DNA of 2,218 nt from a virus (IMGVR_UViG_2698536508_000032); one strand, 5' to 3'; positions 65-2,218 are shown, counted from the stretch's first letter. Numbers and translations: made by a program. The notes: generated by a model not told the origin, from the letters alone.

Positions 65-76
65 GGGCGGCGACCT
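65..76 (+). other. cosN core, 12-nt cohesive-end sequence GGGCGGCGACCT (copy 1)
   Basis: Exact match to the 12-nt lambda cohesive end, flanked by gttacg on the 5' side and cgcgg on the 3' side as in lambda. Confidence 0.8.
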
Positions 77-255: not shown

Positions 256-798
256 TTACTCGCCTTTCTTCTGTAGCAACTTTTCCGGTACGTTTCCGGT
301 TGTTTCTTTCAAGTAATCAGCCAGTATCTGTGGGAGGTTGTCGGCAACTCTGGCACTGGCATTACAGGCTTTAACCACTTCCCTTTTAAGCCTGTCCAGC
401 ATGGCGGGGGTAATCTGTGGGAAGCTCCTTTGCATAGTAAGCGGGAGGATGTCCATGATTGATGAAATCTGACTCGCCAGCTTTGAAAGCGCGTACAGGC
501 AAAACTCAGTATCAATCACGTCACCGCGATCGCGATCGTTTTTAAGTTCCTGCGCCTCTGCCTGTGCTGTCAGTAATCTGATCCTGACTCGTAAAAGTTC
601 ATCATCGTCAATCTCGCCTTTGTCGTTTATAAGCTGGCTAATTGCATTGTTAACCCTATTTTCTATCACGCTGGCAACATCATAAAACGCCTCACGGCCT
701 TTACGCTCAACGGGAGTTACTCCCCACTTGTCGAACGCTGTCGCACTTACACGGCAGCTTTTCGCCATGTTTTTTTTGTTCATCAGATGAGATTTCAT
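256..798 (-). CDS. nu1: Terminase small subunit, lambda Nu1 family (full length, 180 aa from the first ATG)
   Basis: The translation aligns along its whole length with lambda gpNu1 recalled from memory. Examples: N-terminal NKKNMAKSCRVSATAFDKW vs lambda NKKQLADIFGASIRTIQNW (winged-HTH region); RLLTAQAEAQELKNDRDRGDVIDTEFCLYALSKLASQISSIMDILPLTMQRSFPQ vs lambda RLTRAQADAQELKNARDSAEVVETAFCTFVLSRIAGEIASILDGLPLSVQRRFPE; and a conserved C-terminal region. Length (180 aa) matches lambda (181 aa). The start is ambiguous: in-frame ATGs at 796-798, 781-783 and a third further in, none with a strong Shine-Dalgarno sequence. Confidence 0.9.
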   Translation of the reverse strand: MKSHLMNKKNMAKSCRVSATAFDKWGVTPVERKGREAFYDVASVIENRVNNAISQLINDKGEIDDDELLRVRIRLLTAQAEAQELKNDRDRGDVIDTEFCLYALSKLASQISSIMDILPLTMQRSFPQITPAMLDRLKREVVKACNASARVADNLPQILADYLKETTGNVPEKLLQKKGE

Positions 799-905: not shown

Positions 906-975
906 AGGCTCATAAATAGCGAAAATCCGCGAGGTCTCCGCCCCGTAACAGGTCCATATGCCGGAAAGGACCCGC
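906..975 (-). other. cos: Lambda-type cohesive-end region, copy 2 (cosQ-side flank, cosN, I2-like), inverted relative to copy 1, upstream of terS
   Basis: The reverse complement of 911-975 reads gcgggtcctttccggcatatggacctgttacg|gggcggagacct|cgcggattttcgctatttatga. The 23-mer spanning cosN (gttacg through cgcgg) matches copy 1 (59-81) at 22/23 positions. The following 17 nt of I2-like flank differ from copy 1 at 4 positions but match the lambda sequence more closely, and the cosQ-side flank is about 80% identical to copy 1. Beyond that point (799-905) the sequence diverges from both lambda and copy 1 cosB. Confidence 0.7.
932..943 (-). other. cosN core copy 2, GGGCGGAGACCT on the minus strand (one substitution relative to copy 1)
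   Basis: Plus strand 932-943 is aggtctccgccc. Its reverse complement differs from GGGCGGCGACCT only at position 7 (C to A). Confidence 0.7.
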
Positions 976-998
976 AAAAAAGCCGGATTTCTCCGGCC
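976..998 (-). terminator. Candidate Rho-independent terminator downstream of the 137-aa ORF
   Basis: Minus strand reads ggccggagaaatccggctttttt: a perfect 6-bp GC-rich stem (982-987 pairs with 992-997), a 4-nt loop, then six T. It begins 6 nt after the stop of the 1004..1417 CDS. Confidence 0.6.
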
Positions 999-1003
999 TT
1001 GTC

Positions 1004-1417
1004 TCAGATGGTTTTCAGTATGCGATCGATGTCGCCGTCATCGCCCGGGTTTCTGCCATCGTATGCCATGCCAGCTGATACGGCTTGTGGGCTGTGCATG
1101 TCCATAAAGTTTTCAAAGGCTGCGGTAAGCTCTGGTGCAACCTTCGGGCGTTCCTGCTCTATGGTCATGTTCAGGATGTTTTTAGCCGTATCAACATCAA
1201 TACAAGGCACGTTTGCCATTGCACGTAACAGCGGCTGATAGTCGTCAGATTCATGAAGCGCCATAATCGCATCAGCGCGCGGCTTGTCCTTCTCTTCCAG
1301 GCTGTTAAGTTGATATACGGCCTCGTAGGTTGATAAACCTCTGTCAGCCATTGCCCGCGCTTCGGCTTTAAATTTACTCGCCAGCGGTAGCGTCATGATA
1401 CTTTCATTCGTTGCCAT
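1004..1417 (-). CDS. Hypothetical acidic protein (137 aa), translationally coupled downstream of the D-like gene; function unknown
   Basis: The start ATG at 1415-1417 is preceded by agggggaacg (Shine-Dalgarno GGGGGA) and lies 12 nt after the D-like stop. There is no frame conflict with its neighbours. Composition is acidic (about 23 D/E vs 14 K/R). No similarity to lambda FI, FII, W or Nu3 could be recognised by eye. Confidence 0.6.
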   Translation of the reverse strand: MATNESIMTLPLASKFKAEARAMADRGLSTYEAVYQLNSLEEKDKPRADAIMALHESDDYQPLLRAMANVPCIDVDTAKNILNMTIEQERPKVAPELTAAFENFMDMHSPQAVSAGMAYDGRNPGDDGDIDRILKTI

Positions 1418-1429
1418 CGTTCCCCCTGC

Positions 1430-1765
1430 TTATCGCGCCAGCGGCTGAACGGATACGCCAGAACCCGCAAAGGCGGCGCATTTTTTCGCGTCGGTGTCGG
1501 CGCTCTCAGGCCAGTTAACGGCGGCAATATTGAATATCCCCGTCTTGTAGCACTGTGCTGATTTCTGCGTCGACGTGTCCACGGGGTACGAGGTCAGATA
1601 AACAGCCTTGCCAGATTCCTGACCATCCCACGGCTTAAACTCGCCATTTTCCGCCAGCATCAGCGGGGTAAATTCCTGAATAACGCCAGCATCAGCAGCA
1701 AAATGTACCAGCGTCGTGGATACCTGCTGACTACCTGCAAATAACTCAATGTATGGAGTGTCCAT
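1430..1765 (-). CDS. D: Head decoration protein, lambda gpD family (111 aa)
   Basis: FTPLMLAENGEFKPWDGQESGKAVYLTSYPVDTSTQKSAQCYKTGIFNIAAVNWPESADTDAKKCAAFAGSGVSVQ aligns with lambda gpD [76 protein letters not shown] (from memory). Length matches gpD (110 aa). Shine-Dalgarno cggggggattct precedes the ATG at 1763-1765. Confidence 0.85.
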   Translation of the reverse strand: MDTPYIELFAGSQQVSTTLVHFAADAGVIQEFTPLMLAENGEFKPWDGQESGKAVYLTSYPVDTSTQKSAQCYKTGIFNIAAVNWPESADTDAKKCAAFAGSGVSVQPLAR

Positions 1766-1777
1766 AGAATCCCCCCG

Positions 1778-2218
1778 TTAACCAATTTTGACGATAACAA
1801 ATTTGCGAATATCTGCCGGTACCGGCTGCGGTGCGCTGTGCGTCTGCACGTACTCAATCGCCGGATCGCCGTCCTCAATCCAGTTTTTCGGGTAAAACAT
1901 GTTTTGCGTTGCGCCCGTTCTGACCGCTTCCTGATCCATAATCGCACCATAGGCCACCAGCCCTTTATTGTTGGTGTTACCCAGGACCAGCAAATCAGGC
2001 TCAAGGAAATATTTTTCGGTGCCGTCGCTGTCAGTGTATTTGCCGGAATAGACGACAAGGGCAATATCGCCCAGATAGCCTTTAAAGCTCACCACTTCAC
2101 CCAGGTTTTTACAGGCCAGTTCTGCGGCGTGAGGTAGCCTGAGTTTAACGGAAACTCCTTCCTGAAATAGAATGGCCTCAGAAGGAGCTAATAATGAGCA
2201 GAAAAACCCAACGTTACT
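1778..2218 (-). CDS. E: Major capsid protein, lambda gpE family, C-terminal portion (5' end lies beyond the window)
   Basis: The frame is open from the window edge to the stop at 1778-1780. LGEVVSFKGYLGDIALVVYSGKYTDSDGTEKYFLEPDLLVLGNTNNKGLVAYGAIMDQEAVRTGATQNMFYPKNWIEDGDPAIEYVQTHSAP aligns with the lambda gpE C-terminus LGKAVSYKGMYGDVAIVVYSGQYVENGVKKNFLPDNTMVLGNTQARGLRTYGCIQDADAQREGINASARYPKNWVTTGDPAREFTMIQSAP (from memory). The ORF-track start at 2095 is a GTG inside this longer open frame. Confidence 0.85.
   Translation of the reverse strand, partial: SNVGFFCSLLAPSEAILFQEGVSVKLRLPHAAELACKNLGEVVSFKGYLGDIALVVYSGKYTDSDGTEKYFLEPDLLVLGNTNNKGLVAYGAIMDQEAVRTGATQNMFYPKNWIEDGDPAIEYVQTHSAPQPVPADIRKFVIVKIG

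Follow-up and report, generated by a model that had tools for sequence, protein, structure and literature searches.

The 137-amino-acid (aa) protein encoded by an open reading frame that we call X is, on sequence comparison, a homolog of the Nu3 segment that forms the C-terminal part of lambda-type gpC prohead proteases. X is a stand-alone gene, the last of a four-gene late operon in a phage satellite, and on balance we favor the reading that it acts as an internal scaffold for the satellite's own capsid protein. The satellite type and the gene itself, named c1501 in Escherichia coli CFT073, were already known; what is new is the identity of X as a Nu3-type homolog.

By the window we mean the whole stretch of DNA that was analyzed, 2,218 nucleotides long. 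It carries the following features.

65 to 76, plus strand: second cosN-like site, the exact lambda sequence GGGCGGCGACCT, inverted and downstream of terS
256 to 798, minus strand: Nu1-like small terminase gene terS, 180 aa (Pfam Phage_Nu1, E = 8e-23)
932 to 943, minus strand: cosN-like site GGGCGGAGACCT (pattern search and alignment to the lambda left end)
976 to 999, minus strand: terminator-like hairpin with an 8-bp stem, a GAAA loop and a U6 tract (RNA fold)
1004 to 1417, minus strand: X, an ORF with an ATG start encoding 137 aa (program ORF call)
1418 to 1429, minus strand: intergenic spacer GCAGGGGGAACG, 12 nt, with the Shine-Dalgarno sequence AGGGGGA (direct sequence reading)
1430 to 1765, minus strand: gpD-like head decoration gene, 111 aa, the c1500 ortholog (Pfam HDPD, E = 1e-17)
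1778 to 2129, minus strand: 3' fragment (last 117 codons) of a gpE-like major capsid gene (Pfam Phage_cap_E)
2130 to 2218, plus strand: left end of IS600 (IS3 family), lying within the capsid gene (97.8% identity to multi-copy DNA)

The initial annotation had described an acidic, 137-aa ORF at 1004 to 1417, coupled to the D-like gene and followed by a terminator, and all of these sequence features are present. The D-like gene stops 12 nt before the ATG of X, and the spacer with its Shine-Dalgarno sequence translationally couples X to that gene. Three bases past the X stop codon lies the hairpin AGGCCGGA-GAAA-TCCGGCUU (999 to 980), followed by a U6 run (981 to 976). This element was absent from the output of a simple consensus terminator scan; RNA folding supports the hairpin, the centroid fold having a z-score of -2.5 relative to shuffles. 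It resembles an intrinsic terminator and ends the operon; X is the last gene before cos and terS. An Rfam scan of the window returned zero RNA families. The X protein contains two Nu3-type helical repeats of about 40 aa (about residues 2 to 40 and 45 to 85), a FENFMDMHSPQAVSAG motif, an acidic stretch and an ILKTI tail. With 23 acidic and 14 basic residues, it has a pI of 4.6 and a net charge of -9.

Bases 1 to 2129 match the E. coli O26:H11 strain 11368 chromosome, and many other strains, with 100% identity. Identity to the O26 island and to other intact islands ends at 2129, and the multi-copy DNA matching 2130 to 2218 is annotated as 'IS3-like element IS600 family transposase'. The junction between IS600 and the capsid gene at 2129/2130 was found in none of the complete E. 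coli genomes of the collection. In the source strain the capsid protein is truncated and X is cut off from the operon promoter by IS600; the X gene is intact there, and its expression in that strain is uncertain. The suggestion in the initial annotation that X is expressed with the capsid genes therefore stands for intact islands and is doubtful for the source strain, where IS600 interrupts the operon.

The window is the late end of a phage satellite of about 10 kb, an EcCICFT073-type PICI, rather than part of a phage. The O26 island (locus L001) lies between roxA and phoQ, and the window corresponds to its right end. The island begins with genes for an integrase, an AlpA-like HTH protein, an Icd-like protein, a DUF4222 protein, a RepA-type helicase, an SSB and a PerC protein; these are followed by genes for a 68-aa protein, a gpE-like major capsid protein (MCP; 351 aa) and a decoration protein (Dec), then X, cos, terS and the gene for a 93-aa protein. 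We thus found all of the features that characterize an EcCICFT073-type PICI: a size of about 10 kb, int, an alpA-type regulator, a primase/helicase replicon, cos, Rpp or TerS, and a specific insertion site. The same layout is seen in CFT073 and in loci L006 to L013. At the same site in CFT073 are the 68-aa gene, c1499 (MCP), c1500 (Dec), a 137-aa gene, the gene for RppA (c1503, 144 aa) and the 93-aa gene. At 94% identity to the CFT073 c1501 protein, and with flanks matched by the published 'c1501' cloning primers, X is the c1501 ortholog. This gene was left without an assigned function in the papers on EcCICFT073 (Fillol-Salom 2018, 2019).

The neighbors of X are recognizable counterparts of lambda genes. 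The decoration protein is 38% identical to lambda D (BLASTP, E = 2e-14). The intact capsid protein, the c1499 ortholog, has 351 aa and is 44% identical to lambda E, and the intact O26 copy matches lambda E in BLASTP with E = 3e-93. The cosN-like site GGGCGGAGACCT has one mismatch to the lambda cohesive end, has lambda-like flanks and lies upstream of terS, as in lambda. The two cosN sites flank terS in opposite orientations, each followed by the lambda-like series CGCGGxTTTT..TTTATGA..TTTTC, and two cos sites have been reported for EcCICFT073 (PMC6092414). The window TerS is 36% identical to lambda Nu1 and is a full Nu1 homolog; it occupies the slot held by rppA (c1503) in EcCICFT073. We rejected the idea that this terS encodes an Rpp: the protein is not similar to RppA, a PDB search did not match it to RppC, and it is homologous to Nu1 over its full length.

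Evidence that X belongs with Nu3 came from profile searches made in both directions. The Nu3/gpC scaffolding segment of lambda is represented by phrog_8399 and by the C-terminus of phrog_53. X is a full-length member of phrog_1999, a family listed as of 'unknown function' (E = 4e-63), with a second match (E = 6.7e-9) to the end of phrog_53, 'head maturation protease', at positions 494 to 567 of 583. The reciprocal test was decisive: lambda Nu3 matches phrog_1999 with E = 2.7e-26, with Nu3 residues 117 to 200 (its 84 C-terminal residues) aligned to profile positions 42 to 129.

Intermediate sequences lead to the same family. An exhaustive phmmer search of 1.84 billion representative proteins gave eight matches, only one of which lay outside the X family (P0041, E = 2.7e-6). 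On its lambda-like contig the P0041 gene comes immediately before D and E genes, in a frame open to the contig start, and P0041 is therefore the C-terminus of a gpC/Nu3 protein; it matches residues 353 to 424 of lambda gpC with E = 2e-15. A profile search then recruits many C-termini of 'S49 family peptidase' proteins. BLASTP of X against such gpC-type C-termini gave E = 1e-11 (P0171), 4e-7 (P0193) and 6e-6 (P0175); both X repeats align with two target repeats in P0193, and P0175 includes the S49 domain. Residues 49 to 131 of X match the extreme C-terminus (residues 416 to 493) of the 501-aa gpC of CFT073 prophage 4 (BLASTP, E = 6e-10), and this prophage is the experimentally identified helper of EcCICFT073 (PMC6092414).

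Direct pairwise BLASTP of X with lambda gpC gave only E = 0.046, so it is understandable that the initial annotation, made by eye, could not match X to Nu3, a conclusion that proved wrong once profiles and intermediates were used. The one weak result came from an independent profile-profile comparison (hhalign) of two very thin alignments, which was only marginal (E = 0.007). In an alignment of 28 sequences, the repeats, the motif, the acidic stretch and a short hydrophobic tail are colinear, with one or more repeats of about 40 aa of the form xxIMxLxEAxGxExLAxxLAxxPGMTxxxAxxxL and an FxxFMxxHSPxAV(S/Q)xG motif as signatures. The N-terminal repeat of X is the weaker one and beats 99.7% of shuffles when compared with a gpC repeat. 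Compositional artefacts seem an unlikely source of the gpC matches, as the motifs are colinear and E values are as low as 1e-11. The net acidity of X is likewise a trait of the Nu3/gpC family and not a sign of DNA mimicry: the pI is 4.5 for lambda Nu3 (about 130 aa) and 4.45 for the 137 C-terminal residues of the helper gpC. A confident match to a head-assembly protein, which the initial annotation had named as the outcome that would reduce X to an ordinary structural gene, is thus what the searches returned, and it points to X as an ordinary head-assembly gene in an unusual carrier.

Other searches with X gave little. Pfam, NCBIfam and PADLOC scans returned zero matches at E <= 1. Sequence searches of the PDB (phmmer and profile) found no Nu3 structure, the only match being a chance one to Integrator subunit 1 (E = 0.63); searches by structure produced no specific match. 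A single-sequence AlphaFold model of X had a pLDDT of 42 and was useless.

X is a real gene and not a chance ORF. Of 5426 complete E. coli genomes, 593 carry it, 591 of these with the ORF at full length. Pairwise dN/dS values among nine islands have a median of 0.26 for X (range, 0.18 to 0.48); the corresponding values are lower for the capsid gene (0.10) and the decoration gene (0.17). X is therefore under purifying selection. In a divergent island (contig L004), synteny is kept and X is 40% identical, compared with 83 to 85% for MCP and Dec (83% for MCP). X thus diverges much faster than its presumed partner, the MCP; tracking of helper components would also fit this fast evolution. In the CFT073 transcriptome, the mRNAs of c1498 to c1501 rise together at 37 C (PMC12890032), consistent with a single operon.

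Natural variants of X that are only 93 aa long (P0028-P0030) lack residues 25 to 68, which is exactly one repeat unit. The deletion lies between two 'RAMA' motifs whose coding repeats share GCAATGGC, and it is consistent with recombination between these RAMA-coding repeats.

The linkage of X to the shell genes is strict. The 2-kb block consisting of the 68-aa gene, MCP, Dec and X is whole in 592 of the 5426 complete genomes, as against the 593 that have X, and the order of 68-aa gene, MCP (351 aa), Dec (111 aa) and X was invariant in all 11 loci examined. The integrases of these 11 loci are not the same, their replication modules have either an AAA_25 helicase or a D5-type primase, and their insertion sites vary and include phoQ, ung-rpoD, a ccm-side site and gene A of a lambda-like prophage. 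The slot beyond cos, on the other hand, alternates among a Nu1-like TerS (180 aa), an RppA-like protein (144 to 146 aa) and an RppC-sized protein (152 to 153 aa), while the capsid block and the 93-aa gene stay constant. Examples of this slot are 256 to 798 (minus strand) in the window, 2660 to 3094 in L003 and 2439 to 2879 in L004, with others in L006 to L013. An identical X allele (P0014) is accompanied by TerS in one genome and by an Rpp-like protein in a second. Invariant linkage to the shell genes, together with an alternating slot on the cos side, therefore places X functionally with the shell genes and not with the packaging-specificity gene.

A scan of one genome per species found no relatives, and a tblastn search with X of 50,697 phage records gave zero matches at 1e-5. 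The X family hardly extends beyond E. coli and close Enterobacteriaceae.

Several features of the wider islands were noted alongside. In L008 (GCA_013424685.1 contig, about 1 to 10900), the island lies within gene A (large terminase) of a lambda-like prophage, with a GpA_nuclease fragment, W, portal, S49 protease, D and E directly after it; it represents the helper-embedded kind of satellite reported in bioRxiv 10.1101/2022.07.18.500453. The module is framed by two small conserved genes located just beyond the window. The 68-aa gene (L001 17833 to 18039, minus strand) overlaps the start of the capsid gene, belongs to phrog_3255 and has a dN/dS of 0.23. The 93-aa gene (L001 14719 to 15000, minus strand), which follows the TerS/Rpp slot, belongs to phrog_1561 and has a dN/dS of 0.24. 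Neither gene had any Pfam, NCBIfam or PADLOC match. Lambda W is also 68 aa long, and we rejected a gpW-like identity for the 68-aa gene after finding no similarity.

In lambda, Nu3 is an internal scaffold that interacts with itself, with the portal B, with the protease C and with the capsid protein E; it is needed for incorporation of B and is degraded before packaging (PMC3224144). From this we infer how X might work. X would bind the satellite's own gpE-like (c1499-type) capsid protein, as Nu3 binds E, and probably also the portal/protease initiator of the helper. It would chaperone polymerization of the shell from inside the procapsid and would be removed before or during DNA packaging. Self-association and binding may be the task of the helical repeats of X, with the flexible acidic tail at its C-terminus contacting partners. 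The satellite has no portal, protease or large terminase genes, so the helper would have to supply these components. With a satellite capsid protein only 44 to 45% identical to lambda E and to the helper's E, a cognate scaffold is plausible.

Deletion of c1499 (MCP) or c1500 (Dec) left transfer and interference unchanged, and the DNA packaged with lambda was all phage-sized (PMC6092414). The capsid module that X would serve is therefore one for which no phenotype is known. For X itself, the widely used 'c1501::tetA' marker might be taken for a knockout showing dispensability. We rejected this interpretation, since the homology arms in the primer sequences put the cassette directly behind the c1501 stop codon and ahead of the terminator. 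Among the papers searched, none reports a c1501 mutant and none connects c1501 or PICIs with Nu3.

Less probable than a cognate scaffold, and in our judgment fairly unlikely, is a Nu3 mimic used for piracy. Such a protein would dock on the helper's portal-protease-Nu3 initiator or on gpE and either perturb helper head assembly or recruit helper components, and it would need no c1499 capsid. The homology of X to the very C-terminus of the helper's own gpC/Nu3 would suit this role, as would the contacts that Nu3 makes with B, C, E and itself (PMC3224144). The divergence of X, greater than that of MCP and Dec, resembles that of an arms-race or partner-tracking protein, and subversion of scaffolding is common in satellites, as with P4 Sid and SaPI CpmB (cited in bioRxiv 10.1101/2022.09.08.507074). 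However, the published plasmid list includes pBAD18-c1501, and among the cloned genes only c1503 (RppA) reduced lambda plaques, so that overexpressed c1501 did not block lambda; deletion of c1503 alone restored lambda plaquing nearly fully (PMC6739421). The strict linkage of X to the satellite's MCP and Dec also argues for a cognate role instead.

It is improbable that X is a functionless or decaying remnant of the 3' end of a gpC gene, captured with E and D from a lambdoid helper. Helper-embedded satellites do capture helper late genes (bioRxiv 10.1101/2022.07.18.500453), the neighboring capsid genes can be deleted without a phenotype (PMC6092414), variants with an internal deletion exist (P0028-P0030), and the operon in the window is already broken by IS600. 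A remnant would not be expected, however, to remain an intact, full-length ORF in 591 genomes, with a dN/dS between 0.18 and 0.48 in every pair. X has its own start codon and Shine-Dalgarno sequence, with a conserved 12-nt coupling to the gene before it, and its ORF has been kept in the same synteny in the divergent island even at 40% identity.

The three functions that the initial annotation had offered, a packaging accessory acting at cos with TerS, a Ppi-like inhibitor of the helper TerS and a DNA-mimic anti-restriction protein, are largely refuted, and we regard all of them as very improbable. In their favor are the position of X next to cos and terS and its net charge of -9. A terminator-like hairpin separates X from cos and terS, however, and X lies in the capsid operon, where the same allele may be followed by TerS or Rpp. 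Acidity is common to Nu3 and the gpC tails, and the homology of X is to a scaffold. At E <= 1, neither Pfam, NCBIfam nor PADLOC placed X in a known anti-restriction family of the Ocr/ArdA type or in any other defence family, and in the plaque assays only c1503 of the cloned genes, c1501 included, had an effect (PMC6739421).

That X is a 'phage head-tail connector protein', a portal-tail adaptor, as the NCBI and UniRef names on many identical or near-identical records would have it, is hardly credible, as X matched no Pfam or NCBIfam connector model at E <= 1, has no similarity to lambda FI and found no connector in structure searches. The UniRef cluster name for the X protein is 'Head-tail preconnector protein from prophage'. 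The term 'Head-tail preconnector protein' was formerly used for lambda gpC, so the label probably reflects the gpC C-terminal homology and looks like a legacy transfer.

Reading c1501/X as a Nu3-type protein turns what looked like stray capsid genes into a coherent set of shell, decoration and scaffold, corrects the misleading 'head-tail connector' name and removes X from the candidate anti-phage and anti-restriction factors. The block concerned is present in about 11% of complete E. coli genomes, including those of O157:H7, O26, CFT073 and Nissle 1917. We raise, tentatively and with rather low confidence, the further possibility that the 68-aa gene, MCP, Dec and X form a minimal shell kit, in which X would nucleate the satellite's gpE-like protein on the helper's portal/protease initiator and so give capsids with the satellite's own shell under some helper conditions. 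Those conditions could include helpers with C, Nu3 or E genes interrupted by embedded satellites, or helpers with incompatible capsids. If this is true, these islands would mark a halfway stage in evolution between the Rpp-type PICIs that steal everything and the cf-PICIs whose theft is limited to tails. Whether classical cos PICIs ever build or modify capsids is now a directly testable question.

One of the closest known systems is EcCICFT073, the prototype Gram-negative cos PICI (Fillol-Salom 2018, 2019), whose mobilisation by lambda and phi80 is proven. Its c1501 has the same island position, island type and phoQ-side insertion site as X. The two islands differ in the slot after cos, which holds RppA in EcCICFT073 and a full Nu1-like TerS in the window island, and in the capsid gene, which is split by IS600 in the source strain.

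Lambda Nu3 is homologous to X over about residues 45 to 137, with the repeat, the FxxFM..SP.AV motif, the acidic stretch and the hydrophobic tail in the same order. The two proteins are also alike in size (about 130 and 137 aa), in pI (4.5 and 4.6) and in being encoded near gpD- and gpE-type genes. Whereas Nu3 is made from an in-frame internal start within the protease gene, X is a separate gene with its own start. In lambda the order is C/Nu3-D-E, with Nu3 before D and E, whereas in the satellite it is E-D-X, with X after both. X has two repeats and lacks the Ala/Thr/Gln-rich N-terminal region of lambda Nu3, and it is without the EAKGRE and PGMT sequences that phage Nu3 segments conserve. Unlike lambda, the satellite that carries X has no protease (S49) or portal gene.

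Among satellites, several genes are known to act on procapsid assembly, including the internal scaffold CpmB of SaPIs, the external scaffold Sid of P4, the MCP homolog Ccm of SaPIbov5 and the modules of cf-PICIs. EcCICFT073 stands apart in that no size redirection has been seen with it, its packaged DNA being phage-sized (PMC6092414), and unlike cf-PICIs, the island described here lacks portal, protease, large terminase and connectors. Ccm and the cf-PICI capsid genes, like X, are derived from phage head genes.
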